A stretch of DNA of 64,000 bases from contig CAYQEU010000001.1 in assembly GCA_964416765.1 (NCBI GenBank), positions 65,675 to 129,674 on the forward strand, given 5' to 3'. The DNA is from an uncultured Candidatus Saccharibacteria bacterium (GTDB lineage: Bacteria; Patescibacteriota; Doudnabacteria; UBA920). Shown here in pieces: positions 2,868 through 58,708 of the stretch; within the stretch, counting starts at the first letter, position 1; each line of letters opens with the position of its first letter. The notes beneath the pieces are model-generated. The model was not told the DNA's origin and searched no databases. It worked only from the letters and a program-made list of their open reading frames with translations. The translations under genes were made by a program, and so were the position numbers.

Positions 2868-5780
2868 ATGCCCGAGAAATACTCTCCTGAAATAAACGAT
2901 ATGCGCCGGGAGGCTTACAGTGAAGGTTCTCCCCTCCATGAAGCGCGAAAAAAAAGAGACGAAGAAAGAAAAGCCAGTACTAAAATTTCCAGCCGGTTAT
3001 TCGGCAGTGCCACCTCACATGTTGAGGCGGCCAACAGGGCGAGCGAAGAAGCACATCGATTGCATCTGGAAGCGAAGCAAAGGATTGACCTGGCCAAGGC
3101 CCGGTGGAAGGTGGACTTTGAATCTACTGGAAACGCCAAAACTGACCAGCATTTATTGCAATGGTATTTTGAACGGTTTCGGGGACGCTCCGAAGCTTAC
3201 CCGGTCGCAACCGATAGCTTTATCGGCAAGTCGCGGAATGAGTACAACGCCGCGTGGCTAAGTCGTGAGTTAGTGCAAAATTTTGTAGACCACAATCCGG
3301 ATCATCCCGGTACTTTAGACGGAGTAGAAGCAACTGAAGAAGATTTGGGTAATAATACTTCCCGCTTTACCATCCACGGTAACTGGTCATTTGAAGACCC
3401 AACCGGCATTATTAGCCCTCACTCCGACAAGCCGGAAGGCATGAATACCGCAGGTGGTAATGGCATTGGTTTAAAGCAAACGGCGATTCGGTTGATGCGC
3501 GATTTCGGCGCGAAGAAATTTGAAATACAAGGCGATGAATGGGTAGCCAACTATCAGTTGGTCAAGAAAGACCAGGTCAACAAGGAACTGCGTCAGGTTT
3601 TTGACTTAGTCGAGAAACCGCAAAACCGGCAGCTGCAGCACGATTGGCTGGTTGCCAAGCTAAAGGGATCAAAAGAAAATAATGGTAACGCTTATGTAAT
3701 TGAAACGGATAATGAAGAATTGATCCATGCTCTCCGCAAGTTTAACGAACTTGGTGTATCGGAAGGTAACCCGTACCTGAAAGATCCTGACTTTAAGAAT
3801 GAAGAAGGTTCGATAAAATGGATTCTGCCCAAAGACATTGCCGATAAGCCTGAAGGACGTTTGTTCATTAATGGGCAAGTCATGAATTATGACCATAAAG
3901 GAGACTCGTCAGACAGTTACTGGGTTGGCCCGAAGTATATGACCTTGCAGTTAAACAACGTGGATTATAAAATCAGTGTTGACCGCCCGCCGGTAAACAG
4001 TTTTGAACTTCAGCGCTACGCTGAAAAGTTGGTTAACTCCATGACTACTGAACAGCTGGTGGAACAGCTAAAGCTTTCGGAACCGATATGGACCACTACG
4101 GAGGACGAAAAGACGGGATCGCTGGGAGTTATATTGAAAATGGTAAGTACGCTGGGATATAGGAGTGACTACAAAGCGGAAGATTTTGGTTCCGTGTTCG
4201 GCAACAAGTACCTGGCCGCGGAGTACAGCATAACGGCATCACAGCGAAAGCAGCTTGAAGAGCGAGGTTTTATCTTATGCCCATCCCGATTCAGTTCCAT
4301 AGGCATGCCTAAGGCATCCAGTGAGTTGGGGGACTTTGAGGTAGCCACCAACCAGAAGCCTGATGCATGGCGGTCCAAGCGAACTTTGGAAAAAGAAGCC
4401 GAAGCAAACGGGGTGCCCGTAGCTTTTGAGCAAGTTAAAGCCAGCAGCGGAGCGCAATTATTTGGCTTAATTAAGGAGCGATTGGGACAGTTTAACCCAC
4501 AATTGCTATCCGAACCGGGAAGCAATAAAATGCGGATTCGTTTGGAAGGATCCATCCCGCCAAAACTTCTTTCCAGCATACTAGCCAACCCAACAACCGA
4601 AGAACAAAAAGCCCTATATTTCATTCGCGGGGTAGCCATGAAAGGCCTAACTGATCGTGCCCTGCAAAATATGTACATGTCCCAGGGGGAATACGTTACT
4701 ACTTTCGCGCTCGACCACGATATTGAAACCAAGGAAGATTCTTTATATGTCAGGAATACAAAGTCCGCGAGTCCTGAAGGATGGTTTATAGAATTCGAAG
4801 TGACCGAGAAGGACAGGGAAGCAGTTTTGTCAGCGTTCCAGGAAGCGCCGGAAGCTAAACCCGCAACGAACCCGCAGATCGGCATCGTACCGGCTAGGGG
4901 AGAAGTTCAGCCTACAGAAGCGCTAGCGAAACAACCAGCTACAGAGAACGAGAATACCGCTTTAGCCAAACCACGGCCGAAAGCTTACCCGACTAGAATA
5001 GTTGATATCGAGTTAACTCCCGAAGCCCGGGAAATTGCCGATAAATTGGAAAAGGAAATTCCCGAGTTGGCCGAGACCGTCGGAAAGCTAGAAAGCATTT
5101 TGCCCAAAGAGGAAGCAAACAGCGGCGTTGATTACCGCGTGGCGATGTACCAGGAGCTGCAACAATCGGGGGAAATTGACCGGGTGGCTTTGCGCAATTC
5201 CAATTACCTGGGGAGCAAAACCTTACTGGAAATTTTGGATGATTATAACAACGTAAACATATCCACGGTATCTGTTAACCGTGAAATTAGCGGCGCTGAA
5301 ACTAAGCTGACTTCCCTTAACCGCAGGATAGCGAATGTAGCCAACCGGTTCCGTCCATCGGAAGAAATGGTCAATAATGATTTTGAGATTGTCATGGATC
5401 CGGAAGAACGGCAATTAATCCAACTCGGCATGCTCCGCGCTTATGTCGCTTTCGTTACCGACGCGCAGTTCAACAACGATTTCCTGCTGTTCCGCGGGTC
5501 CGGCACCCGGGCCATTAACATCGACAAAAAGGCGATTGGCTTCCATGAAGAATTATTGAAGCAGGAATTTGGCAAAACTGTAATGTCCGCTTTGCATGAA
5601 GTGGCACACAACGAAGTTTCCAACCACGGCCCGCAGTTTATTTCCATGCTCCAAGCGTTAACGGCTCGCGCCCAGGAAAGACTGCTTGGCGTTATTGACA
5701 AGCAAAGCAGGGGAGAGCAGCTGGATGAAACAGAACAAATAATCCAGGCAATCTACCAAGAGTGGGAAAAAATGAGATAA
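2868..5780 (+). CDS. Large orphan protein (970 aa) with N-terminal GHKL/HATPase_c-like motifs and a C-terminal HExxHx5H zincin-like motif
   Basis: It is a single long ORF with an RBS-like GAAACTATG context. Candidate GHKL motifs are an N-box-like ELVQNFVDH and a G2-box-like GGNGIGLKQTAI. An HEVAHNEVSNH motif sits about 60 aa from the C-terminus. No other family is recognisable. A hairpin terminator follows at 5782-5808. Confidence 0.6.
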   Translation: MPEKYSPEINDMRREAYSEGSPLHEARKKRDEERKASTKISSRLFGSATSHVEAANRASEEAHRLHLEAKQRIDLAKARWKVDFESTGNAKTDQHLLQWYFERFRGRSEAYPVATDSFIGKSRNEYNAAWLSRELVQNFVDHNPDHPGTLDGVEATEEDLGNNTSRFTIHGNWSFEDPTGIISPHSDKPEGMNTAGGNGIGLKQTAIRLMRDFGAKKFEIQGDEWVANYQLVKKDQVNKELRQVFDLVEKPQNRQLQHDWLVAKLKGSKENNGNAYVIETDNEELIHALRKFNELGVSEGNPYLKDPDFKNEEGSIKWILPKDIADKPEGRLFINGQVMNYDHKGDSSDSYWVGPKYMTLQLNNVDYKISVDRPPVNSFELQRYAEKLVNSMTTEQLVEQLKLSEPIWTTTEDEKTGSLGVILKMVSTLGYRSDYKAEDFGSVFGNKYLAAEYSITASQRKQLEERGFILCPSRFSSIGMPKASSELGDFEVATNQKPDAWRSKRTLEKEAEANGVPVAFEQVKASSGAQLFGLIKERLGQFNPQLLSEPGSNKMRIRLEGSIPPKLLSSILANPTTEEQKALYFIRGVAMKGLTDRALQNMYMSQGEYVTTFALDHDIETKEDSLYVRNTKSASPEGWFIEFEVTEKDREAVLSAFQEAPEAKPATNPQIGIVPARGEVQPTEALAKQPATENENTALAKPRPKAYPTRIVDIELTPEAREIADKLEKEIPELAETVGKLESILPKEEANSGVDYRVAMYQELQQSGEIDRVALRNSNYLGSKTLLEILDDYNNVNISTVSVNREISGAETKLTSLNRRIANVANRFRPSEEMVNNDFEIVMDPEERQLIQLGMLRAYVAFVTDAQFNNDFLLFRGSGTRAINIDKKAIGFHEELLKQEFGKTVMSALHEVAHNEVSNHGPQFISMLQALTARAQERLLGVIDKQSRGEQLDETEQIIQAIYQEWEKMR

Positions 5781-16989: not shown

Positions 16990-18261
16990 TTGAAAAAAAC
17001 TTCCCCGACCCCGAAAGTATCCGGTATCGCCGGAGCTAAAGACGTAATTACCCAAACCGACCCCATCGGAAACTTGATGCTAAAGAGTTTCCAGAAGGTC
17101 GGTCGTGTTTATGGTTTCCTCCGAGTCGAAACTCCGATCTTAGAAGACGCCCAGTTGTATAAAAATTTTGCCAAAGATACTGCCGAGAGCGGACAGGACT
17201 CGCTTGCTATCCCCGTCGGTCCGCATAATTACAGCGTCCGTTCCGCGATGCTCCCTTCGGTGCTGCGCGCTTACGCGCAAAGGAAAACTGACGAAACTGA
17301 AGTACTGGCCAAGTGGCATTATTTGGGTAACGTGGTCCGTCAGGACGAGAACAAAGGCTGGGTTTCCGATTATGAATACGGTCTGGAAACTTTGGGGGTG
17401 TTCAACCACCTCACTGAAGCGCAGACCATTGCCGCGGTTTGGCATTTTGTCCAGGAACTTGGCCTCGCCGACGCGACTTTGGAAATAAACACCATTGGCG
17501 ACAGCGCGTGCCAACAGGCTTATGAAAGTGTGCTAAAGACTTACCTCAAGGAAAATGATTTTAACCTGTGCGATAACTGCAAGGAACAGATTAAGCACCG
17601 CTCGTTAAACGTTCTGCGCTGCACGGAGGAATCCTGCCAAAACGTGGCAGCCGGCGCTCCGGCCGTGCTCGACTTTTTGGATGAGGTAACCCACAAGCAC
17701 TTTACTAATATTCTTGAAGCACTGGACGAGCTCGCTATCCCTTACCAGCTTAACCCGCTCTATGTCGGTCGGGAAGGACTTTGCAAAACCAACGTTATTA
17801 TCCGTTACAAGAGCGGCAAAGAAACGGTGACTTTAGGTGAAGCCGGTTACCACGACATGATATTGAAAAACCTGGGGGGCAAAGGCTTGTCGGGGTTTGG
17901 ATTCGTCGGGAGTTTTGCTGCCATCCGCCGGGCTTTGGAACTCGCCGCCATCGAAGCCGAAAACAGTTACCGTACCGAAGTTTACCTGGTCCCGCTAGGG
18001 GAGTTGGCCGCCAAGAAAAGCCTGCGCTTGTTCCGTGACCTGATTGCGGAAGACGTCCAGGTGTATGACCACTTCGGCGCCGCCGGGGTAAAAAATCAGC
18101 TTAAACAGGCCGAAGCATCCAAATCTCCGATTGCCCTGATCATGGGCCAGAAGGAAGCCATGGATGAAATGGTTATCTTGCGTGACGTCAAAAGCGGCAT
18201 GCAGGAAGTTTTCTCTTACGACAAAATTGTCGTTGAGGTCAAAAAGCGCCTCGGCCGCTAA
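16990..18261 (+). CDS. Histidyl-tRNA synthetase-like paralog with degenerate catalytic motifs (HisZ-like or non-catalytic; retains a class II anticodon-binding domain)
   Basis: Its architecture matches the bona fide hisS at 26916. The class II motif 2 is degenerate (HYLGNVVRQDE...EYGLETLGV instead of R..E..Q.D), and the His-binding GGRYD is replaced by GEAGYHDMIL. The C-terminal HGPT-type anticodon-binding domain is conserved (VYLVPLGE...IALIMGQKE). Confidence 0.6.
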   Translation: MKKTSPTPKVSGIAGAKDVITQTDPIGNLMLKSFQKVGRVYGFLRVETPILEDAQLYKNFAKDTAESGQDSLAIPVGPHNYSVRSAMLPSVLRAYAQRKTDETEVLAKWHYLGNVVRQDENKGWVSDYEYGLETLGVFNHLTEAQTIAAVWHFVQELGLADATLEINTIGDSACQQAYESVLKTYLKENDFNLCDNCKEQIKHRSLNVLRCTEESCQNVAAGAPAVLDFLDEVTHKHFTNILEALDELAIPYQLNPLYVGREGLCKTNVIIRYKSGKETVTLGEAGYHDMILKNLGGKGLSGFGFVGSFAAIRRALELAAIEAENSYRTEVYLVPLGELAAKKSLRLFRDLIAEDVQVYDHFGAAGVKNQLKQAEASKSPIALIMGQKEAMDEMVILRDVKSGMQEVFSYDKIVVEVKKRLGR

Positions 18262-22814: not shown

Positions 22815-25493
22815 ATGTCGCAAATCCACGAAAATCTGCAAACCCGGCAGAAGAACGCCCTCTCCGAATTGGGAGAAAAAATCTTTTTAGACCGTTATGC
22901 TATTAAAGACGCCAAGAAGGAAACTTTGGCGGTGGGCGATACCGTCGTGGTATGCGTTAATCTTAAAACCGGCCAGCGCGAAATCGGCACCGTTGAATCC
23001 ATGGACACCGGCAAAAAAGAAGTCCAGGTTAAACTCCGCGATGGCAGTGTTGAATCCCACAAGATTGAAAACGTGGACAAACCGGTTGAAACCGTGCCGG
23101 AGCAGATGTTCGACCGTATTGCCAAGCACATTTCCAGCGTGGAAGCGACTTCGGAAAAACAGCACGAGTGGGAAGAAAAATTCCGTGGCGTCATGGAAGA
23201 CTGGAAGTATGTCCCAGCGGGACGCATCTACACCGGTTCGGGTACCGGCCAAAATTTAACTTTTTATAACTGTTACGTAATTCCGTCTCCTAAGGATTCC
23301 CGCGGCGGCATCATCGATACGCTGCGCCAAATGGCGGAAATTATGTCCCGGGGCGGCGGCGTTGGCATCAACGTTTCCTCTTTGCGCCCGCGTTACGCTT
23401 ACGTCAAAGGCGTAAATGGCCGTTCTTCCGGATCTGTTTCCTGGGCCTCCCTTTACTCTTTTGTTACCGGTTTGATTGAACAGGGCGGTTCCCGCCGTGG
23501 CGCTTTGATGCTCATTTTGAATGTTTGGCACCCTGATGTAGTGGATTTCATCAATGCCAAAAAGGAAGCTGGTAAGATTACCAACGCCAATATTTCCGTT
23601 GGTGTCACTGACGATTTCATGGAAGCCGTAAAGGCTGACAAAGACTGGGATTTGGTATTCCCTGACACTTCCGACCCGCTTTACGCCGAAAACTGGAATG
23701 GTGACCTGAAAGCGTGGAAAGAAATGGGCGGCAACGTTATAGTCCATAAGACCGTTCCAGCCCGTGAGATTTGGGACAATATTATTTCTTCGGCCTGGTC
23801 CAGCGCCGAACCCGGCGTTTACTTTATCGACCGCGCCAACTACTACTCTAATTCCCACTACTACGCCCAGTTAATGTGCACCAACCCTTGTGGGGAACAG
23901 CCGCTTCCTGCTTGGGGTGTATGTAACCTCGGCCACGTTAACTTGTCCCGCCATTTGACCGCGGAAGGCAATGACGTTGACTGGAATGGCTTGAAGACCA
24001 CTGTCCAGTACGCTGTCCGCTTCCAGGACAATGTTATTGACGCCACTCCTTACTTCTTCGAAGAAAACAAAACCCAGCAGCTTTCTGAACGCCGCATTGG
24101 CATGGGTACTATTGGGCTCGCTGAAATGCTTATCAAACTCGGCATCCGCTACGGCAGCGAAGAGGCTGTCCAGTTTATCGACAAACTTTACCAATTCATC
24201 GCTGTTACCGCCTACGAAACATCCGTAGAACTCGCCCGTGAAAAAGGCGCTTTCCCTCGCTTCAAGGCTGATAAGTTTTTGGAATCCGGTTTCATGAAGA
24301 ATATGCCGGAATACATTCGCGGCATGGTTGCGGAACACGGTATCCGTAACGTTACCATTTTGACCCAGGCCCCGACCGGTACTGTTGGTACCATGGTTGG
24401 CACCTCTACCGGCATTGAACCGTTCTTCTCCTGGACTTACTTCCGCAAGAGTCGTTTGGGTGTTCACCAGGAAAACATCAAACTGGCGCAAGATTGGTTA
24501 GACGCGCACCCAGGCGAAGAATTGCCGGAATACTTTGCCACCGCCATGGAGCTTTCTCCGGAAGACCACGTACGTGTCCAGGCCGCGGTACAACGCTGGA
24601 TGGACAGTGCTATTTCCAAAACCTGCAACGCCCCACAAGACTACACCATTGAACAGACCAAGAAGCTTTACGAAATGATGTATGACCTGGGCTGTAAAGG
24701 CGGCACTATTTACCGTGATGGTTCCCGTGACGAACAAGTCTTGGCTACTGACTCCAGCAAGCTCGGCAAGGACGCGGCCGAACAGGTCGCCAAGAAAGAG
24801 GGTGTCCAATCTGAGGTCCAGGAAGTCATGTCTGTCACCGGCGGCAACATCCAGTTCAAGATTGCCCCTCGTGAGCGCGCCACTGTAATGGGCGGCATGA
24901 CCTATCAGATGAAAACCGCGTATGGCAACCTGTACGTAACTATCAATGAAGATGCTAGTGGCCCGTTTGAAGTGTTTGCTTCCCTTGGCAAATCCGGCGG
25001 TTTCTTTGGCGCTCAGACCGAAGCAATTACCCGGTTGATTTCCTTGGCTCTCCGCTCCAATGTCGCGATTGAAGAAATCATTGACCAGGTTAAGGGGATT
25101 CGCGGCCCTGACGTTTCATTTGCCGATGGCCAGGCGGTTTACTCCCTGCCGGACGCAATTGGAAAAATTTTGGAAAAGCACGTTAAGCGCAATGACCAGC
25201 TCCAGCTCGATTTGGGCATCCCTGAGACCGCTCAGGACACAAACCCGGTTCCGCCGGTAAGCCCGGAGCCGCACCCTAGCGAACCTACCCAGGAACCGGT
25301 TATGGAAGCAGTTAAGGAAGCCATGGTGGGACAGGCTCCGCAAGGGGAAATGGCCATGCAGAAAGCCAAAGCGGCCAAGGTTTCCATTGCCAACCTGGGC
25401 AACGCCCCGGTCTGCGGAACCTGCGGCAGCATGCTGGTTATGGCCGAGGGTTGCATGAAGTGCGAATCCTGCGGCTACAGCAAGTGTGGCTAA
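22815..25493 (+). CDS. nrdJ: Class II (adenosylcobalamin-dependent) ribonucleotide reductase
   Basis: The protein is 892 aa with the catalytic NPCGEQ motif and the CNLG thiyl-radical Cys loop. The C-terminus has a Cys-rich zinc ribbon (CGTCGSMLVMAEGCMKCESCGYSKCG). Confidence 0.9.
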   Translation: MSQIHENLQTRQKNALSELGEKIFLDRYAIKDAKKETLAVGDTVVVCVNLKTGQREIGTVESMDTGKKEVQVKLRDGSVESHKIENVDKPVETVPEQMFDRIAKHISSVEATSEKQHEWEEKFRGVMEDWKYVPAGRIYTGSGTGQNLTFYNCYVIPSPKDSRGGIIDTLRQMAEIMSRGGGVGINVSSLRPRYAYVKGVNGRSSGSVSWASLYSFVTGLIEQGGSRRGALMLILNVWHPDVVDFINAKKEAGKITNANISVGVTDDFMEAVKADKDWDLVFPDTSDPLYAENWNGDLKAWKEMGGNVIVHKTVPAREIWDNIISSAWSSAEPGVYFIDRANYYSNSHYYAQLMCTNPCGEQPLPAWGVCNLGHVNLSRHLTAEGNDVDWNGLKTTVQYAVRFQDNVIDATPYFFEENKTQQLSERRIGMGTIGLAEMLIKLGIRYGSEEAVQFIDKLYQFIAVTAYETSVELAREKGAFPRFKADKFLESGFMKNMPEYIRGMVAEHGIRNVTILTQAPTGTVGTMVGTSTGIEPFFSWTYFRKSRLGVHQENIKLAQDWLDAHPGEELPEYFATAMELSPEDHVRVQAAVQRWMDSAISKTCNAPQDYTIEQTKKLYEMMYDLGCKGGTIYRDGSRDEQVLATDSSKLGKDAAEQVAKKEGVQSEVQEVMSVTGGNIQFKIAPRERATVMGGMTYQMKTAYGNLYVTINEDASGPFEVFASLGKSGGFFGAQTEAITRLISLALRSNVAIEEIIDQVKGIRGPDVSFADGQAVYSLPDAIGKILEKHVKRNDQLQLDLGIPETAQDTNPVPPVSPEPHPSEPTQEPVMEAVKEAMVGQAPQGEMAMQKAKAAKVSIANLGNAPVCGTCGSMLVMAEGCMKCESCGYSKCG

Positions 25494-25516
25494 CAATTTG
25501 TATTTATAAATAACAA

Positions 25517-25556
25517 AGCCGCGTATAAAGGTTGGAATACGCGGCTTATGTTTTAC
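25517..25556. terminator. Bidirectional terminator (nrdJ on the plus strand; 167-aa gene on the minus strand)
   Basis: A perfect 11-bp stem AAGCCGCGTAT...ATACGCGGCTT with a 9-nt loop, followed by tgtttt. Confidence 0.75.
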
Positions 25557-25572
25557 CGAAATTGAATGAGGG

Positions 25573-26076
25573 TTAAGGGACTATGAGCCTGACTTGCTCA
25601 GTGCTCAGGACGAGAGTATTGCCACTCTCAAGGCGAATCCGTAGGCGAAGGACAACTTCCTTGCTGGTGACCACCTTGGATTGGTAGGAGTTGGTGTGGG
25701 CGGGGTGCCCGGAACCTCCCCGATAATATGAACGGGTAGATTGCCCGGCAGTCGTGGGGCCAAGAATCCCCACTACGGCTACTTCGCGACCGGCGTAAGG
25801 CTTGCCCTTCTTGTCGGCGGCGCGAGTGCGGATGATGATGACCTTGCGGTCCATGTAACGCCGGTGCGTTTCGTGGTAAATTTTAACCCGGTTAGGTTTG
25901 CACCACTGCTTGTTGGTCGGGTTAAGAAACTCCGCGAGAATTTTGCGCTCATCAGTTTTGCAAATTCCCGGATCCATCAAGTGAAAGCGTTCAAAAAAAT
26001 CGCTTTCCTCAGTGCGGCTCGTTGCCGCTCCATTTCCGGAAGCATCGGATTCAATGCTCCTTTTATCATTCAACAT
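25573..26076 (-). CDS. Hypothetical protein (167 aa)
   Basis: An RBS gaggagg lies 11 nt upstream of the ATG. The gene ends at the bidirectional terminator. There is no recognisable domain. An overlapping plus-strand ORF at 25741-26082 is judged less likely. Confidence 0.5.
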   Translation of the reverse strand: MLNDKRSIESDASGNGAATSRTEESDFFERFHLMDPGICKTDERKILAEFLNPTNKQWCKPNRVKIYHETHRRYMDRKVIIIRTRAADKKGKPYAGREVAVVGILGPTTAGQSTRSYYRGGSGHPAHTNSYQSKVVTSKEVVLRLRIRLESGNTLVLSTEQVRLIVP

Positions 26077-26122
26077 TATTAAGAAAGTCCTCCTCAGACA
26101 GTGTAGTTAGACAAATATTACC

Positions 26123-26746
26123 ATGCCATTTACCAAAAAGAAAACCACCAAAGAAGAGATTGCCCAAAAAGGCTTAGTCTTGGTTAATATTGGGGCGGGC
26201 AAAGGCAAGACTACGGCGGCCTTTGGTTCGGCCATACGCGCTTCCGGCGCCGGGCTAAATGTGTTTGTGCTGCAGTTCGTTAAGGCGGCGAAACCAAAAG
26301 AGGGGCGCGAGCTTCAGCCGGGGGAGTGGCCACTTTCCAGTGAAGTCCAGTTTTTGAATGACATAAAAATTCCGCGGGGAATGGGGCGAATTGACTGCGA
26401 ACAGGTGGGTGCCGGGTTTGTTGGCATACTTGGCGACCGCAAAGAGAAGGAGCAACACATGCGTGAAGCTCTCCGTGGCCTGGAAATGGCGCGCAAAGTC
26501 CTGGCAGGGAAGGAATATGATTTAATAATCCTTGATGAGATTCTGTCGGCGGTAGATTTGGAACTCCTAACTGAACAAGACATTATTGATTTGATACAGG
26601 CGAAACCATACGACACTCATGTCATAATGACCGGGCACGAGAAGTATCCCAAGATTTTTAAGCTTTGCGACACCGTTACGGAAATGAAGATGGTGAAGCA
26701 CGCCTACTACAATGGGGTATTAGCCCAGTTTGGGATTGACTACTAA
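26123..26746 (+). CDS. cobO: Cob(I)yrinic acid a,c-diamide / corrinoid adenosyltransferase (CobO/BtuR/CobA family)
   Basis: The P-loop-like region LVLVNIGAGKGKTTAAFG and the overall 207-aa CobA/BtuR architecture are present. It is adjacent to the B12-dependent nrdJ. Confidence 0.8.
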   Translation: MPFTKKKTTKEEIAQKGLVLVNIGAGKGKTTAAFGSAIRASGAGLNVFVLQFVKAAKPKEGRELQPGEWPLSSEVQFLNDIKIPRGMGRIDCEQVGAGFVGILGDRKEKEQHMREALRGLEMARKVLAGKEYDLIILDEILSAVDLELLTEQDIIDLIQAKPYDTHVIMTGHEKYPKIFKLCDTVTEMKMVKHAYYNGVLAQFGIDY

Positions 26747-26764
26747 CCCAAATTATGCTATAAT
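26736..26764 (+). promoter_or_regulatory. Promoter for the hisS leader (TTGACT-17-TATAAT with extended TG)
   Basis: ttgact at 26736-26741 (inside the cobO 3' end), a 17-nt spacer, and tgcTATAAT at 26756-26764. Confidence 0.55.
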
Positions 26765-26774
26765 TAAGGCAGAT

Positions 26775-26825
26775 ATGAAAAACATCAATATTTACAACCA
26801 GAACCATCATCACCCTCTTGGCTAA
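26775..26825 (+). promoter_or_regulatory. His-codon-rich leader peptide ORF (MKNINIYNQNHHHPLG), putative attenuator leader of hisS
   Basis: The 16-codon ORF has three consecutive His codons (cat cat cac at 26805-26813) just before a duplicated CCTCTTGG segment (26814-26821 and 26860-26867). The AAGAGG at 26824-26829 can pair with either copy. The second copy sits in a terminator hairpin. Confidence 0.55.
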
Positions 26826-26856
26826 GAGGTTGTTCTTGTTGTATTTATTTACACCG

Positions 26857-26880
26857 CAGCCTCTTGGGGCTGTTTTTTGT
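26857..26880 (+). terminator. Attenuator/terminator hairpin between the leader peptide and hisS
   Basis: CAGCCtcttggGGCTG followed by TTTTTTG. It lies 36 nt upstream of the hisS start. Confidence 0.6.
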
Positions 26881-26915
26881 TTGGCCGCTTAACTGATACA
26901 ATTAATTAGAAGTAT

Positions 26916-28208
26916 ATGACTGAAAAAATCGAACCGCGATTGCTTAAGGGCTTTCGCGACTACAACACTACTGAACAAGCCGCGCGGCAGGAAATGTTCC
27001 GGAAGATCCAGGACACCTTCGAGTCGTTTGGCTTTGCTCCGCTTTCCACCCCTGTGCTGGAGTACAAAGACATTCTCATGGGGAAATATGGGGAAGACGA
27101 AAAGCTGATTTATGCTTTTAAGGATAATGGCGATCGCGATGTGGCCATGCGATATGACCTGACCGTGCCTTTGGCGCGTTACGTGGCTCAGAACATCAAC
27201 CAATTAACCCTGCCGTTCAAACGTTACCAGATCGCGCCAGTCTGGCGCGCGGATAACCCGCAGCGAGGAAGACTCCGCGAGTTCTACCAGTGCGACGTGG
27301 ACAGTGTTGGGGCCGTGGGCGCGTTAAGCGACGCTGAAGTAGTTGCCTGCGTGTGCAAAGCCATTGAAGCTGTTGGCATTACCGGATATAAGATAAAGAT
27401 TAACGACCGGGGATTGTTTGAAATCATTTCCAAGTCTTACCTTAAGGGCAGCGACGAAGAAATACAGGTGATGCGCGCCATGGACAAGACTGACAAAATT
27501 GGCCGCGAGGGTGTGGTAAATCTGTTGAAAGAAAAAGGGGTGTCCGGTGAGGCCATGAAGTTTGCCGAGTTGCTGCTGGAGACAGGAACCGGAAACGGCG
27601 CGTTGGATAAATTGGAACAGGCCGTGCCCGGCGCGTCCGAGCGTATTAAGGAATTTCGTAAGCTGGTTAGCCTGATTGCCGCGCAGGGAATTGACGCTGA
27701 CAAAATTGTGTTTGACCCGTCATGCGTCAGGGGGCTCGACTATTACACCGGCATGGTTTGTGAAATCGTGTTGAAAGATAACCCGGAGTTTGGTTCCATT
27801 GCCGGAGGCGGCCGCTATGATGGGCTGCTGGAAACCTTTTCCACCACTTCCGTTCCTGCGGTTGGCGTGAGCATAGGGGTGGACCGTTTGTTCGAAGCTA
27901 TGGAAAGTTTGGGACTTATTAAACAGAGCGGCGCTGTAAAAGCTATGATTTTGAACCTGGATGAGGAATTAGTCGCAGATTACGTGGCCCTGGCCAAAAC
28001 CCTGCGTGAAAGCGGAATTTCCGCTGAAGTTTATTTCCAATCCGCCAAGCTCGACAAGCAATTTAAGTACGCGGAAACCCGCGGCGCTAAATTTGCCATT
28101 ATTATGGGTTCGGAAGAAAAAACGGCGGGGACAGTACAGGTAAAAAATCTGGAGACGCGCGAGCAGAACATGGTGAAAGTTGAAGAATTGTCAGGTACGC
28201 TAACCTAG
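26916..28208 (+). CDS. hisS: Histidyl-tRNA synthetase
   Basis: Class II motif 2 is RLREFYQCDVD. The His-binding block is AGGGRYDGL. There is a C-terminal anticodon-binding domain. The protein is 430 aa. Confidence 0.9.
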   Translation: MTEKIEPRLLKGFRDYNTTEQAARQEMFRKIQDTFESFGFAPLSTPVLEYKDILMGKYGEDEKLIYAFKDNGDRDVAMRYDLTVPLARYVAQNINQLTLPFKRYQIAPVWRADNPQRGRLREFYQCDVDSVGAVGALSDAEVVACVCKAIEAVGITGYKIKINDRGLFEIISKSYLKGSDEEIQVMRAMDKTDKIGREGVVNLLKEKGVSGEAMKFAELLLETGTGNGALDKLEQAVPGASERIKEFRKLVSLIAAQGIDADKIVFDPSCVRGLDYYTGMVCEIVLKDNPEFGSIAGGGRYDGLLETFSTTSVPAVGVSIGVDRLFEAMESLGLIKQSGAVKAMILNLDEELVADYVALAKTLRESGISAEVYFQSAKLDKQFKYAETRGAKFAIIMGSEEKTAGTVQVKNLETREQNMVKVEELSGTLT

Positions 28209-28247
28209 TTTAGGAAATATTGAACTGGCTTGTGGTAGGCTCTAGCC

Positions 28248-29690
28248 ATGCCGCCAAGCCAGTTTTTTGTTGCCTGCGTTTTAAGCTTTCTTGGCGGGGT
28301 GTTGCTTGCCGGTTTTGAACTGGGACATTTTGAATTGGCTGCTTTTATTGTCGGGGGGATTGGTTTCGCTGGTTTTCTGGCAGCGTTGGTTTTGGGCAAA
28401 AAGGAATCTCGATTCGCCGTGTTGTGCGCTGGCGTGGTGTTCTTTTGCTTAGGCATAATCCGCTACTCGCAGGCTAACCAGCCCAGCCAGTTCAGTAGCA
28501 ACCTAAACAGGAAGCTGCAGCTTGAGGGGGTAGTTGTTGCCGATGCTGATATCCGAATTAAGACGCGGCAGTTGACCGTGCGTCCGGATGGCTATTCCCA
28601 AAACATCCTGGTCGTCACTTTGCCGGACCAGGATGTTACTTATGGAGACCGAGTATGGCTAACAGGGATATTAACAGAACCGGCGCCGTTTTCGGATTTT
28701 AATTACAAAGAATACCTAAAAAGATACCAGATATACGCCATGATGCGCCGGCCAAAAATAATTGTCCTGCGCCGGCACCAGGGCAATCCGGTAATAGCCG
28801 CGCTGTATAACCTGAAAAACTACTACGTCAATAAAGCCAGTGAACTCCTGGGGGAGCCGGAAAGCTCGCTGGTAGTGGGTATTCTCATTGGCGCGCGGAA
28901 AACTTTGTCAGAAGATATTGTAAATGAGTTTAACCGGACCGGGCTTAGTCACATAGTGGCGGTATCAGGGTACAACATCAGCATAATTATTTCGTCGCTC
29001 GGGTTTCTAGCGAAGTACTTGGGGCGGCGCGCCAGTTTTTACGTGTCGCTAGGAATTATAGTGGGCTTCGTGGTGCTGACCGGCGCGAGTGCGTCAATAC
29101 TCCGCGCGGGAATAATGGGAGGGTTGGTGCTGTTTGCCAGCCATATCGGCCGGCCTTATTCAGTTACGCCAAGTTTGGTGTTTAGCGCGGTCGTCATGGC
29201 GGGCATCAATCCGCGTATTATGTACTGGGACATGGGGTTCCAATTGTCTTTTGCCGCGACCGCGGGGATTATTTATGCCTTACCCCACTTGGAAATCATT
29301 TTTTCGCACGTTCCCGAACGGTTTGAATTAAAGTCGATTTTACTGACCACACTTTCCGCCAGCCTGTCTACCTGGCCGTTGCTGGTGGGAAGTTTCGGGC
29401 GGGTGAGTGTGATCGCGCCGGTTGCGAATCTGCTGATCCTGCCCACCATTCCCTGGGTCATGTTGCTGGGGTTTTTAATCTTGCTTCCGGTCGCGGGCAC
29501 CGGCTTTGCCTGGATGACCCATTTACTGCTGGTGTATATCCTCAAAGTGCTGGCCTATTTATCCTCCCTGTCCTGGGCGTCAAAGGAAATTGATCCATCG
29601 CCAGCCAATTTTGCGATTGCACTGTCGCTGAGCCTGGCCATATACCTGACCATTCGGATTCTCTCACGCAAGCTGCAAAAGCGGCCTTGA
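28248..29690 (+). CDS. comEC: ComEC/Rec2 family DNA-uptake channel protein (competence domain only; no beta-lactamase-like domain)
   Basis: An N-terminal DUF4131-like TM region is followed by the competence domain (LSHIVAVSGYNISII, multi-TM). The protein is 480 aa. Confidence 0.8.
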   Translation: MPPSQFFVACVLSFLGGVLLAGFELGHFELAAFIVGGIGFAGFLAALVLGKKESRFAVLCAGVVFFCLGIIRYSQANQPSQFSSNLNRKLQLEGVVVADADIRIKTRQLTVRPDGYSQNILVVTLPDQDVTYGDRVWLTGILTEPAPFSDFNYKEYLKRYQIYAMMRRPKIIVLRRHQGNPVIAALYNLKNYYVNKASELLGEPESSLVVGILIGARKTLSEDIVNEFNRTGLSHIVAVSGYNISIIISSLGFLAKYLGRRASFYVSLGIIVGFVVLTGASASILRAGIMGGLVLFASHIGRPYSVTPSLVFSAVVMAGINPRIMYWDMGFQLSFAATAGIIYALPHLEIIFSHVPERFELKSILLTTLSASLSTWPLLVGSFGRVSVIAPVANLLILPTIPWVMLLGFLILLPVAGTGFAWMTHLLLVYILKVLAYLSSLSWASKEIDPSPANFAIALSLSLAIYLTIRILSRKLQKRP

Positions 29691-29741
29691 TGGCGGCCCT
29701 GATAACTGGTAAAATTAGTGCATTATTAAGAGTTTTTACCA

Positions 29742-30509
29742 ATGCCGAACAAAAATTTAATCATTATCGCGGTTATTATAGTCATTGCTGCCCTCGCTTT
29801 GTGGGGAGTATCTAAAATAGCCAAAGCACCGGAGAACATGAACAACAACACTAACAGTCAGGCTAACGCGCAAAACAACGACCAGAATAATCTTGAGGTG
29901 AATAACAATGCCCAGGCTAACGCGAATGGCGAGCAGGCTATGAATGGCTGTATCCGTAATTTCAATCCTGATGTGCTGAAAGAAAAAACAGCCCCGACCG
30001 AAACTTTTGCCACCTTCACCGTCAAAGATTTTGGAACTTTTAAGGTCCAGCTTTACCCCAAGGATGCCCCCAAAACAGTTGAAAACTTTACCCGTTTGAT
30101 TAAAGCCGGGTATTACAATTGTCTGACCTTCCACCGTGTCGCTCATGATTTTGTTATCCAGACCGGTGACCCAACCGGCACCGGCAGCGGGGGAGACAGT
30201 GCTTTCGGTGGCGCGTTTGCCGATGAGCTAAACGCGAACACCTCAAGTTACAAAACCGGTTACGTCAAAGGGATCCTCGCCATGGCAAATGCCGGCCAGG
30301 ATACCAACACCAGCCAGTTCTTCATCAACGTTACAGACAATACCGCCAAGCTTGGCCATAACTACACTATTTTTGGCAAAGTTGTTTCCGGCCAGGACGT
30401 GGTAGACAAAATCGGTAAGGTGCCGGTAACTCCAGGTACTTTTGGTTCTGAAGACGGCAAGCCGGTAACACCGGTTGTCATTGAATCAGCCGTATTGAGC
30501 GCAAAATAA
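29742..30509 (+). CDS. Cyclophilin-type peptidyl-prolyl cis-trans isomerase, membrane-anchored with an Asn/Gln-rich linker
   Basis: There is an N-terminal TM helix, an N/Q-rich low-complexity linker and a cyclophilin core (FHRVAHDFVIQTGDPTGTGSGG, SQFFIN). Confidence 0.85.
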   Translation: MPNKNLIIIAVIIVIAALALWGVSKIAKAPENMNNNTNSQANAQNNDQNNLEVNNNAQANANGEQAMNGCIRNFNPDVLKEKTAPTETFATFTVKDFGTFKVQLYPKDAPKTVENFTRLIKAGYYNCLTFHRVAHDFVIQTGDPTGTGSGGDSAFGGAFADELNANTSSYKTGYVKGILAMANAGQDTNTSQFFINVTDNTAKLGHNYTIFGKVVSGQDVVDKIGKVPVTPGTFGSEDGKPVTPVVIESAVLSAK

Positions 30510-30531
30510 TAATTAATTAAACAAGCAAAGA

Positions 30532-31128
30532 ATGTCCATTAAGCACGTAAAAGAACAGCGCACCTTAGTATTAGTAAAGCCCGACGGCGTAAAGCGCGGT
30601 TTGGTAGGCGAAGTGTTAAAACGCATGGAACGCCGCGGTTTGAAAGTAGTTGCCTTAAAAATGGTTGCCGTTGACCGCAGCCACTTGGAACGCCATTTCC
30701 CGACTGAAGACGAATGGGTCGGCCGTTTGGGTGACAAGGGTTTAAAAACCTTTGCCGAATATGAGCTGGATGTAAAAGAACACATGGGTACCGACGACCG
30801 GATGGAAATCGGGAAGATGGTTAAGGAAAGCCTGTTTGACTACATGACTTCCGGCCCAATTGTGGCCATCGTTATCGAAGGTTTGCACGCCATCGACATG
30901 GTTCGCAAGCTGGCCGGCCACACTTTGCCGGTATTCGCGGAAATGGGCACGATACGCGGTGACTTCTCCGTGGACAGCCCGGCGATTGCCAACGTGGAAA
31001 AGCGCGCCATCCACAACATCATGCACGCCTCGGAAACGGCAGCTGAAGCTGAAAACGAAATTGATCTTTGGTTCCGCCCTGAGGAAATCCATTCCTACAA
31101 GCGCGCCGAAGAAGATATAATGTTCTAG
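30532..31128 (+). CDS. ndk: Nucleoside diphosphate kinase with an approximately 40-aa insertion
   Basis: RTLVLVKPDGVKRGLVGEV, the NIMHASE (NIIHGSD-like) active-site region and SGPIVA are present. At 198 aa it is longer than the canonical ~140 aa because of an insert between the HY and kpFF regions. Confidence 0.75.
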   Translation: MSIKHVKEQRTLVLVKPDGVKRGLVGEVLKRMERRGLKVVALKMVAVDRSHLERHFPTEDEWVGRLGDKGLKTFAEYELDVKEHMGTDDRMEIGKMVKESLFDYMTSGPIVAIVIEGLHAIDMVRKLAGHTLPVFAEMGTIRGDFSVDSPAIANVEKRAIHNIMHASETAAEAENEIDLWFRPEEIHSYKRAEEDIMF

Positions 31129-38886: not shown

Positions 38887-38915
38887 TTGACAAAACCCTT
38901 CAAATGGCGTACAAT
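38887..38915 (+). promoter_or_regulatory. Consensus promoter TTGACA-17-TACAAT with roughly 200 nt of non-coding transcript downstream
   Basis: ttgaca at 38887-38892, a 17-nt spacer, and tacaat at 38910-38915. No ORF longer than 20 codons occurs before the rpmF promoter. Confidence 0.55.
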
Positions 38916-39121
38916 GCGCAGTTACGTCTTTTTGGGCGTAATTTAACAACTTATTTGCCGCACCGGAAATTACTTATAATTTAGCCGGGTTGCCGCAAAT
39001 CATATGCTCCTAATCTCGGTAATTCGGTTTGGGGGCGCTTAAAAGGCCATGCCACAGGAATAATATTTACTATGATTCTCATGTCGCGTGGCTTTTTATT
39101 ATGCCCAAAAAGCCCTTCTCA

Positions 39122-39349: not shown

Positions 39350-39366
39350 ACGCTTTGCGTTTTTTA
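39333..39366 (+). terminator. Terminator overlapping the rpmF 3' end
   Basis: ACGCAAAGtcacctaaacgCTTTGCGT followed by tttttatttg. Confidence 0.6.
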
Positions 39367-56893: not shown

Positions 56894-58708
56894 CTAGTTG
56901 GTTATGGCATAAGACCCGGGAACAAACTCCCACGATCCGCCGGGGCCGCTATAGAAGTTTTCACTGACAAGGCCGCTGTCATAAGTTAGGGTAGCGCCGC
57001 CGTCCATGGTAATTTGTTTTGCGGTGATCGCTTTCAAAACCGCGCCGCCGCTTATATGGACGTTACCATTTTGTGCTACCAAAGCCACTGTACCGGAACC
57101 GCCCGAAAGGGAAATGGCGTCGTTGCCGTTGCAGCCCGGCGCCACGGGGCAAGCGCTGGTGGTGATGACAAATGGGTAACTTCCAGCTGTACCGGAACCC
57201 TGAAAATCTGAGCCCCCACTAAGTACTACATATCCGTCTGTTACCAGCACCCCGCTATTGCTGCCATATGAAGAAGCTAATTTAACTTTGCCTCCACTGG
57301 TGATGGTTACACTGCCTTGCACCCAAAGGCTGCCGGTCAGGGTTAATGTGCCGCCACCATTCACGAGCAGGTTGCCGGTGATTTTTTTCGGACCAATGGT
57401 GGCTCCGGCAAAACCAACAGTGTAGTCTCCAGTAATAGTGCCGCCTGCTTCAGCGTCATCTTTCCAGTCCTGGATGTTGTTGTCGGAGAGAGGTAAAGGG
57501 GTGGACGGGGGAGAAGAACGGCTGGTGTCGCAGGATTTGCTTGTAAAGCTGGAAGTTTGGCAGTACAACGGGCCGGTGATAGTTGCTCCCATAACGTTAT
57601 ATGCCCAAGCGACATCGGTCGAAGTCGTTCCGACATATACGCCCGTATTGTAGCTGTTGCCACCAATCATGGAGCTGCCGCCGCCCAAGTAAACCCGGAA
57701 ATAACCATCTAATCCGCTGGGACTCGTTGCCGACCAACTTCCGCCGTAGCTACCGAGCTTTCCTTGTCCATTAGCGTAGCCGTTTGAGTTGGCTCCAATG
57801 ATGTAGTATTTGGTGGAGCTGGTGCTCCCGTCTAATACCACCCAGTATGTTTGGGAGGGGTCGAGTACCGGAGTGGTAGGGAAAGTAGCGCTGACCCAAC
57901 CAAAATTGGTTGTTACCGCAGAAGCGGAGATGGTTCCACTCATGAGCTGGGTATTGCTCGGGCTTCCGGAGTTGTCGGTAACAATGCGAACCGTTAGATT
58001 GCCCGGAGTGCTGACCTTTTTGAGATAAAACGCGATATTATTTAAAGGAGTGGCCGCGGATATCTTAAAACTCTGTGAGAAATCCTGGGTGGCCGCGGCG
58101 TCACCAAAAGTAATGCAGGTGGAACTTGTGCAGGAAGATATAGTTGATGGCACATCATTGGTTTGGTCCGCGACCAGTGCCGGGGGATCGGCGGCAACAG
58201 CACTTCCCGTAATATGGACACCGGTAGTGGCGCTAATGGTGCCATTGGAGTACACATTTCCGTTAATGGTAGAACCGCCGGTTAAGGAGAAACCGCCCGT
58301 TCCGGCCTGAACCCCGTAGCGGAAGGAGATTACTGAAGAGTTTATGCCCACATTGGCACGCACGGTCTTAGAGGTGGTTTTGCCTTTGAACGTTGATGTC
58401 CCTGTTGCCACAATGGCGCGTGTTTGGGAATCGATAGTGGACACGGCAATGGTAACCGTACCGCCTCCAACAGCTGTGTTGGTTTCGCCGGTATAACTAA
58501 GGTTCTGGTTAAGCTTAGACACAGCGATGTCCAGCCCGGCGTCGGCTAGTTGCAACGCTTGTGCGCTGGAAACAGTAGTTCTAGCGCTTTTTACGCTGGT
58601 TGAGACGTACTGCAGTAGTACCGCTGAAAGCGACAAGATGATGGCAAAAAATACAATTACGACGATTGCCACGTAACCATTTTTTTTGAAGGGTAGTTTG
58701 AGCTTCAT
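56894..58708 (-). CDS. Large pilus-associated protein with PilX-N-like N-terminus (putative type IV pilus tip/adhesin component)
   Basis: There is an N-terminal TM segment. LLQYVSTSVKSARTTVSSAQALQLADAGLDIAV resembles the PilX N-terminal domain. The remaining roughly 550 aa are Gly/Ser/Thr-rich beta repeats. Its start abuts the upstream pilin gene, consistent with an operon. Confidence 0.55.
   Translation of the reverse strand: MKLKLPFKKNGYVAIVVIVFFAIILSLSAVLLQYVSTSVKSARTTVSSAQALQLADAGLDIAVSKLNQNLSYTGETNTAVGGGTVTIAVSTIDSQTRAIVATGTSTFKGKTTSKTVRANVGINSSVISFRYGVQAGTGGFSLTGGSTINGNVYSNGTISATTGVHITGSAVAADPPALVADQTNDVPSTISSCTSSTCITFGDAAATQDFSQSFKISAATPLNNIAFYLKKVSTPGNLTVRIVTDNSGSPSNTQLMSGTISASAVTTNFGWVSATFPTTPVLDPSQTYWVVLDGSTSSTKYYIIGANSNGYANGQGKLGSYGGSWSATSPSGLDGYFRVYLGGGSSMIGGNSYNTGVYVGTTSTDVAWAYNVMGATITGPLYCQTSSFTSKSCDTSRSSPPSTPLPLSDNNIQDWKDDAEAGGTITGDYTVGFAGATIGPKKITGNLLVNGGGTLTLTGSLWVQGSVTITSGGKVKLASSYGSNSGVLVTDGYVVLSGGSDFQGSGTAGSYPFVITTSACPVAPGCNGNDAISLSGGSGTVALVAQNGNVHISGGAVLKAITAKQITMDGGATLTYDSGLVSENFYSGPGGSWEFVPGSYAITN

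Follow-up and report, generated by a model that had tools for sequence, protein, structure and literature searches.

The interval between cobO and hisS

In the stretch of 64,000 nt analysed here (the window; coordinates count from its first letter), hisS, the gene for histidine--tRNA ligase (HisRS), lies downstream of cobO, and the interval between the two had been predicted to hold a leader peptide with His codons that acts as a transcription attenuator for hisS. All the sequence features named in this original prediction were recovered where it had placed them or within 1-2 bases (Table 1). The flanking genes were also correctly named, as judged from the match of cobO to PF02572 and from the score of the hisS product against TIGR00442 (411 bits for a cutoff of 287), which identifies it as a true histidine--tRNA ligase. 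The solved structures nearest to this product are HisRS of the eukaryote/archaeal type.

The promoter announced between the two genes, P1, was present and matched 11 of the 12 consensus positions, in addition to its TG extension. It was the top promoter-like site in the 3 kb scanned, and its -35 hexamer overlaps the final codons of cobO. Close relatives keep TTGACT and a -10-like hexamer (TATAAT, TAAAAT or TAAAGT). The ATG of a short ORF stands 10 nt 3' of the -10 box of P1, and this ORF carries, as had been reported, 16 codons with three consecutive His codons among them. Given that His accounts for 1.7% of the codons in the genes of the window, the expectation for such a triplet in a random 16-codon ORF is ~7e-5.

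The RNA that follows can be described as four segments. The octamer CCTCTTGG was found twice, in agreement with the original prediction, at 26814-26821 and at 26860-26867, the second copy occupying part of the 5' arm and the loop of the terminator. AAGAGG (26824-26829) overlaps the leader stop codon and has CCUCUU as its hairpin partner; an outer stem (26793-26804 with 26832-26843) lengthens this hairpin 1:2. The terminator stem comprises 7 bp (about -7.6 kcal/mol), and its 5' arm and loop (26856-26867) are at the same time the 3' strand of the antiterminator. Left unconstrained, the segment 26770-26890 folded into hairpin 1:2 plus the terminator (-30.2 kcal/mol, z -2.5). The octamer occurs five times in the window, as compared with 2.3 expected. 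Taken alone, the evidence from the window goes only moderately beyond chance and is suggestive rather than compelling. The comparative data presented below are decisive, because the whole module recurs 5' of hisS in 14 other loci.

The segment 26814-26829, together with TTGTTCTTGT, scored as terminator-like in a terminator scan, and hairpin 1:2 followed by the G/U-rich tract resembles a signal for pausing or for weak termination. The spacer between regions 2 and 3 measures 27-45 nt in relatives, where a small extra hairpin is often found in it. It was also observed that the GAGG of region 2 (26826-26845 and the corresponding segment of relatives) resembles a Shine-Dalgarno sequence, with a TTG, GTG or ATG 6-7 nt later in most members. 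These triplets lie in the conserved G/U-rich tract GUUGUUUGUGUUG, and the frames downstream of them vary in length and sequence. The G/U-rich tract at 26826-26845 is more likely to be a pause signal and a part of the antiterminator than a second ORF.

Table 1. Coordinates of the features discussed in the text
Feature	Position	Strand	Description
HisRS-like gene	16990-18261	+	423 aa, TTG start; 33 nt after signal peptidase I
cobO	26123-26746		PF02572; final codons overlapped by the -35 of P1
Promoter P1	26736-26764	+	-35 TTGACT 26736-26741, 17-nt spacer, extended -10 TGC-TATAAT 26756-26764
Leader ORF	26775-26825	+	16 codons + TAA, MKNINIYNQNHHHPLG; ATG 26775, TAA 26823-26825
Putative sensor codons	26805-26813	+	CAT CAT CAC; His at -6, -5 and -4 from the stop
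Region 1	26814-26821	+	CCUCUUGG, final leader codons; pairs with region 2
Region 2	26822-26833	+	C-UAA-GAGGUUGU; holds the leader stop 26823-26825; alternative partners are regions 1 and 3
G/U-rich tract and variable spacer	26834-26855	+	between regions 2 and 3
Regions 3 and 4 (terminator)	26856-26882	+	GCAGCCU-CUUG-GGGCUGU, then U6-G-U3; hairpin 26856-26873
Candidate promoter P2	26894-26902	+	TGATACAAT, extended -10-like element, 13 nt before the hisS ATG
hisS	26916-28208	+	histidine--tRNA ligase, 430 aa; PF13393, PF03129; predicted regulated gene

Recurrence of the module upstream of hisS in Patescibacteria

The comparison set consisted of 80 species-representative loci chosen by HisRS similarity and of the contigs encoding the nearest database proteins. 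The HisRS proteins and loci nearest to those of the window come from uncultured Patescibacteria, labelled Patescibacteria group, Candidatus Doudnabacteria or "uncultured Candidatus Saccharibacteria". The module was found 5' of hisS in 14 further distinct Patescibacteria loci, hence in 15 with the window, the HisRS of these relatives being 52-94% identical to that of the window (Table 2). At locus L092, the sequence breaks inside the element and the terminator alone is retained. Members with H-x-H or a single His were found by a looser scan and by eye, and not by the regular expression for adjacent His residues. The original prediction had suggested comparing relatives for a short ORF with at least two His codons: the 14 further loci all have a short ORF with one or more His codons, and L013, L017 and L025 have a single one.

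Table 2. Leader peptides of the 14 relatives
Locus	HisRS identity to window	Leader
L081	94%	MKKVTNYNQTHHHPLG
L082	74%	MNKLSFISFNSHRHLHT
L083	74%	MKFARFYNQIHRHTSS
L085	71%	MKMPSLISPFIHNHPLA
L088	71%	MKKSIFFNTNHHHPLF
L001	70%	MKKVIFFSEKHHHPLC
L090	71%	MKNLIAKTISHHGLHT
L091	71%	MKKMNFIVFNRHSHSLA
L021	70%	MKFVLFSTKNHHHPLG
L121	61%	MKYFRFYITNSHHHPLP
L006	58%	MNIILIQLNTHNHPHA
L013	56%	MKNQFAQILVHTQPLS
L017	57%	MKNLLSQIFVHTQPLV
L025	52%	MSFRPVQVVSHMQPLV

The gene located 5' of the module varies among loci (cobO, DUF6580, hypothetical genes or genes on the opposite strand), indicating that the module travels with hisS. A covariance model, R1, built without L121, recovered this locus at E=3e-12, and, when run over 94 sources, it yielded no member beyond those already identified. 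A neighbour-joining tree of HisRS placed the leader-bearing loci in essentially one clade, from which L025 stood apart as an outlier; L093, with other genes directly next to hisS, represents a single loss. The leader is missing from most of the remaining Patescibacteria relatives (45-59% HisRS identity). P0016 likewise has no leader, as the intergenic gap read from its gene table is just 23 nt. Relatives also have in common with the window the local gene order ribonucleotide reductase, cobO, hisS, comEC, peptidyl-prolyl isomerase and ndk. Across 22815-31128 of the window and L081-L093, the clade-wide order includes a small reverse-strand gene between the ribonucleotide reductase, which is of class II, and cobO, and variable insertions are confined in this clade to the cobO-hisS leader interval.

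The ORF has 16-17 codons with an invariant ATG in all 15 loci and stops with TAA or TAG. His is found at -6 from the stop in all 15 leaders, always as CAT; in the genes of the window, CAT is the minor His codon (126, vs 207 CAC). At -4, His is present in 11 of the 15 leaders, with CAC and CAT both used (synonymous changes), at -5 in seven and at -2 in three; none of the 154 residues N-terminal of -6 is a His. His thus makes up 14.8% of the leader residues, as compared with 1.7% of the codons in window genes. By contrast, positions -7 and -5 are variable, each with 6-7 different residues, and the peptide, its His codons excepted, shows no conservation across the 15 loci. The CCUC motif of region 1 changes frame among members, the residues that follow His being P-L, L-H-T or T-S-S, so that the C-terminal amino acids differ but both the RNA motif and the His codons are retained. 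Such a pattern would be expected from selection for His codons and for RNA pairing rather than for a peptide product.

The RNA elements are similarly maintained. The leader stop codon overlaps the (A)AGAGG of region 2 in 15 of 15 members. The terminator is kept in all of them, its stem being CAGCC/GGCUG, CAACC/GGUUG, CCUCU/AGAGG or GCCCCUC/GAGGGGC depending on the lineage, and region 2 is complementary to the stem variant of each lineage. In a MAFFT alignment, 92% of the cells of the 1:2 and 3:4 stems were paired, as compared with 41-54% when partners were slid, and six pairs changed on both sides. In L121, a G to A change in region 3 goes together with a C to U change in region 4. Members with a TAG stop were one column out of register in this alignment (A2), which was not used for counting antiterminator pairs; the antiterminator was therefore judged from constrained folds of the individual sequences.

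In 13 of the 14 members scanned, 6-10 nt separate the end of the P1 -10 hexamer from the leader ATG, in line with the earlier proposal that transcription starts very near this ATG. No conserved Shine-Dalgarno sequence was detected 5' of the leader ORF among the members compared. We infer a 5' untranslated region of about 2-4 nt in the window, where the leader would be leaderless or nearly so, and the usual start-site distance would give 0-4 nt in members. Leader-lacking relatives were also inspected. In L002, L004, L007, L009, L011, L014 and L016, the hisS ATG lies 6-7 nt after a TGnTATAAT box (at about locus position 2975-3000), and these boxes sit after the terminator of the upstream gene. 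The hisS mRNA itself appears to be leaderless in these seven loci. Leaderless initiation is therefore plausible in the lineage, because of both the -10/ATG spacing and the arrangement of hisS in leader-lacking relatives, and it seems to be common in this group of Patescibacteria.

Folding of the leader and the predicted switch

To assess the effect of a ribosome on the leader, we folded, in 14 members (the window and 13 relatives), the segment that starts at the ATG and ends with the terminator stem; all positions up to 12 nt past the first base of the codon in the A site were kept single-stranded. When the A site was placed at His -6, the antiterminator was the best fold in all 14 members (-18 to -25 kcal/mol) and no terminator pair was left. 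In the window, this fold contains a 12-bp helix (26822-26833 with 26856-26867) and amounts to -19.1 kcal/mol, vs -7.6 for the terminator. With the A site at His -4, the antiterminator was best in 13 of 14 members (-10.5 to -20.3 kcal/mol), the exception being L025, in which the terminator persisted. Placing the A site at the stop codon restored the terminator in 14/14. As a control, we used dinucleotide-preserving shuffles of the segment from the mask to the terminator (200 per member): the terminator was fully lost in just 0-35% of these, and the constrained energies of the real sequences were matched by 0-2 shuffles in 12 of the 14 members. Region 1 begins 0-9 nt after the His codons, and the geometry is marginal in the three members with a single His codon. 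These folds agree with the original prediction that AAGAGG can pair with either copy of the octamer, in hairpin 1:2 when unmasked and in the antiterminator when the His codons are masked. Together with the conservation of the module in 15 loci, they bear out the 1:2 / 2:3 / 3:4 logic of an attenuator.

These findings suggest that the module is a ribosome-mediated leader-peptide transcription attenuator coupling hisS to the supply of charged tRNA-His, an explanation that we regard as highly probable. From the sequence elements, their conservation and the energies of the alternative pairings, we infer a transcription start, leaderless translation, ribosome stalling, termination and a basal promoter P2. 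The P1 transcript would begin with the leader AUG or no more than about 4 nt away from it, and the ribosome would hence load without the help of a Shine-Dalgarno sequence. If His-tRNA is abundant, this ribosome would proceed to the stop codon and cover region 2, since the stop lies inside it (UAAGAGG). Region 3 would then pair with region 4, and the polymerase would terminate at the U-tract, at about 26873-26882, releasing an RNA of ~105 nt. When His-tRNA is scarce, the ribosome would stall with its A site on one of the His codons -6 to -4 and cover region 1. Region 2, left free, would engage the 5' arm and the loop of the terminator in the 12-bp helix, allowing the polymerase to read through into hisS. 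As HisRS makes His-tRNA, this would constitute a feedback loop on the enzyme's own activity.

The original prediction considered a single promoter and overlooked a TGnTAnnAT element located 13-18 nt before the hisS ATG, and followed by GAAAGGA, in every leader-bearing locus with sequence there (the window, L001, L006, L013, L017, L021, L025, L081-L092 and L121). This element adjoins hisS whether the T-run of the attenuator ends 37 or 188 nt before the gene. In the window it corresponds to the candidate P2. This is probably a second promoter, outside the control of the attenuator, that would provide hisS with a basal level of expression, on top of which the attenuator would allow an inducible increase in transcription.

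Several observations weigh against attenuation by His-tRNA supply, or limit its extent. The promoter-like TGnTAnnAT element could drive much of hisS expression independently of the attenuator. The unconstrained best fold was already the antiterminator in 7 of the 14 members, in which region 1 may add little and the untranslated default is perhaps read-through; the 1:2 pairing put forward earlier is thus seen in the window and in relatives, but region 1 is weak in about half of the members. The stems of the terminators are short, measuring 5-7 bp (-4 to -8 kcal/mol). The number of His codons is low (1-3): L013, L017 and L025 keep a single CAU at -6, and a ribosome stalled there would extend no further than the first few bases of region 1. 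As the CCUC and GAGG cores do not vary among members, no evidence of covariation comes from the central pairs. Finally, we know of no earlier information on intrinsic termination or on transcription-translation coupling in Patescibacteria.

We considered the possibility that the module is an independent small gene, for a structured RNA or a micropeptide mRNA, with hisS transcribed from its own P2 and without any coupling between the two. The fact that TGnTAnnAT stays with hisS as the T-run moves from 37 to 188 nt away would fit such an arrangement, and the terminated product would indeed be a discrete RNA. Yet, the module was never parted from hisS despite rearrangements upstream, a metagenome pattern scan (described below) gave it nowhere else, and the peptide is not conserved outside its His codons. 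Moreover, it would be left to coincidence that His codons, a stop codon inside region 2 and a region 3 shared with the terminator are all found beside a His synthetase. We consider this explanation unlikely. The notion of a chance ORF between a cobO terminator and a hisS promoter finds some support in the modest statistics of the window (the octamer count and the folding z-score). It does not account for a strong promoter upstream of the terminator rather than downstream, for the maintenance of the module where the neighbour is not cobO or is on the other strand, or for the conservation of length, start, stop and His codons. Being already refuted by the comparative data, it retains a negligible probability.

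Two other explanations accept that a ribosome controls the switch. In one of them, the attenuator would sense the general speed of translation or the availability of ribosomes, rather than His-tRNA specifically, as could be argued from the single His codon of L013, L017 and L025 and from the half of the members that form the antiterminator whenever region 2 is ribosome-free, in which any slowdown would lead to read-through. This is difficult to reconcile with the invariance of His -6 (15/15) next to the variable positions -7 and -5, with the enrichment of His at -5, -4 and -2 and its absence elsewhere in the leader, and with the target gene, a His-specific synthetase; such a non-specific sensor appears quite improbable. 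In the other, the leader would be an arrest peptide (...H-x-H-P-L-x-stop) sensing free histidine or another ligand in the exit tunnel, as TnaC does. The conserved C-terminal H..P-L pattern is reminiscent of this, as is the constant spacing of six codons from the stop seen in most members, but P-L is accounted for by the RNA motif CCUCUU, the other frames giving L-H-T or T-S-S, and no conserved arrest motif is present. Furthermore, arrest at the stop would cover region 2 and favour termination, an outcome that the simple model already gives. We hold an arrest peptide to be very improbable. Stalling at His codons for lack of charged tRNA-His is the explanation that we retain.

Relation to known regulators and other observations in the window

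The element does not correspond to a known leader, T-box or riboswitch, as indicated by searches of Rfam. At the gathering score, the whole window contained three tRNAs only and no leader family; with E up to 10, the segment 26600-27000 gave chance-level, unrelated matches and no His_leader (RF00514), T-box or riboswitch. The metagenome pattern scan (AGAGG, 20-50 nt, CAGCCTC, 1-6 nt, GGGCTGTTTT), which is blind to variants with other terminator stems, disclosed no element upstream of genes other than hisS. Two of its 27 matches were real, both being hisS leaders known by other routes, and the rest were ordinary terminators or coding sequence. Literature searches on leader-peptide attenuators in Patescibacteria or the candidate phyla radiation (CPR) returned nothing relevant, and no description of the conserved hisS family was found in them. 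From these comparisons, the module is predicted to be a new family of leader-peptide attenuators without detectable homology to curated leaders; its mechanism would be classical and not surprising.

In E. coli, the synthetase genes pheST are under the control of the leader peptide pheM, and the enterobacterial his leader contains seven His codons. As in trpL, hisL and pheM-pheST, the hisS element has a short ORF with cognate codons, four segments whose alternative hairpins (anti-antiterminator, antiterminator and terminator) exclude one another, a stop codon at which a terminating ribosome would mask region 2, and an intrinsic terminator 5' of the structural gene. The output would be a synthetase, as it is for pheST, and hence a feedback on tRNA charging. 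The element differs from the classical leaders of Proteobacteria by having 1-3 His codons rather than seven, by its host, which belongs to Patescibacteria, and by an ORF that starts 6-10 nt after the -10 box without a Shine-Dalgarno leader.

The hisS gene of Firmicutes is controlled by a T-box, with the same signal (charging of tRNA-His) and the same output (terminator vs antiterminator) as proposed here. A T-box, however, reads uncharged tRNA directly, without translation, whereas sensing by the hisS element would go through a translated ORF. T-box leaders are usually well over 200 nt long, and the hisS leader transcript, at only ~105 nt, is too short for such a leader. The claim in the original prediction that synthetase genes are usually under T-boxes in Gram-positives or not attenuated at all was too strong, as indicated by E. 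coli pheST-pheM and by a second case: His leader peptides have been predicted upstream of a Bacillus hisS paralogue and of hisZ (Naville and Gautheret 2010, PMC2965389). The Bacillus leader is likewise a computational prediction, and it likewise combines a short ORF carrying a run of His codons and a premature terminator 5' of a gene of the hisS family. It belongs to Firmicutes, where the main hisS has a T-box and the leader is on the paralogue, whereas the leader described here is on a gene that passes the hisS equivalog cutoff; we set the two apart on the basis of the published description.

Leaderless sensory ORFs have precedents in the polycysteine short ORFs of mycobacteria (Canestrari et al., bioRxiv 10.1101/834739) and in the leaderless ilvBNC leader peptide of Corynebacterium glutamicum (PMC11857589). 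In both, as would be the case for hisS, the sensory ORF opens a leaderless transcript and stalling at cognate codons remodels the RNA. The hisS element differs from them in phylum, in the amino acid sensed and in the class of the target gene. The conserved hairpin and U-tract found 37-188 nt before hisS point to transcriptional control.

To our knowledge, very few regulatory elements are known in Patescibacteria. The hisS element may conceivably be the first amino-acid-sensing cis-regulator recognised in Patescibacteria (CPR), working through a leaderless ORF and, in some lineages, through a single CAU six codons before the stop, but we make this suggestion only tentatively. Patescibacteria have small genomes and are generally unable to make their own amino acids, and the attenuator, lying as it does before an essential synthetase gene, would show how such cells may match their capacity for tRNA charging to scavenged histidine. 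It would imply that leaderless translation is coupled to transcription in Patescibacteria and, if correct, that this coupling is tight in these reduced cells. The element could also be one of a larger group of leaderless attenuators, specific for particular codons, that act on synthetase or transporter genes of this lineage, and it would represent an independent case of a synthetase gene moving between a T-box, a leader peptide and a plain leaderless promoter. ORFs of 16 codons are never called in metagenome-assembled genomes, where annotators could look for this and similar leaders with the help of the alignment, the covariance model and a simple signature.

The synthetase genes present in the window and in the fetched loci are just hisS and a second, HisRS-like gene. 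Structures of HisRS of the bacterial type align with the latter (16990-18261) over its full length (1qe0, E=5.6e-34). Its identity to the attenuated hisS is 23%, and its score against TIGR00442 (168 bits) is below the cutoff of 287. The contexts of GGRYD and of the motif-2 arginine look degenerate in its product (GEAGYHD and WVSDYEY, respectively), and the gene has no leader. Its presence may bear on the reason why the canonical hisS is inducible.

A scan of the intergenic regions of the window for 5' terminators disclosed nothing comparable to the hisS attenuator. Two ORFs, at 2868-5780 (+, 970 aa) and 56894-58708 (-, 604 aa), had no Pfam match at E up to 0.001. A candidate attenuator at 39360 was rejected, as it is the terminator of rpmF. 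Upstream of rpmF (L32, 39182-39349), a consensus promoter, TTGACA-17-TACAAT, is present at 38888-38916 (+), and it is followed at 38922-39100 by a structured region of ~180 nt (-60.4 kcal/mol, z = -5.55, none of 200 shuffles being as stable) that ends with a hairpin and a T-run. Rfam gave no match for the region 38888-39100, E values of up to 1 included, and this region may represent a ribosomal-protein leader or a non-coding RNA that has escaped annotation.

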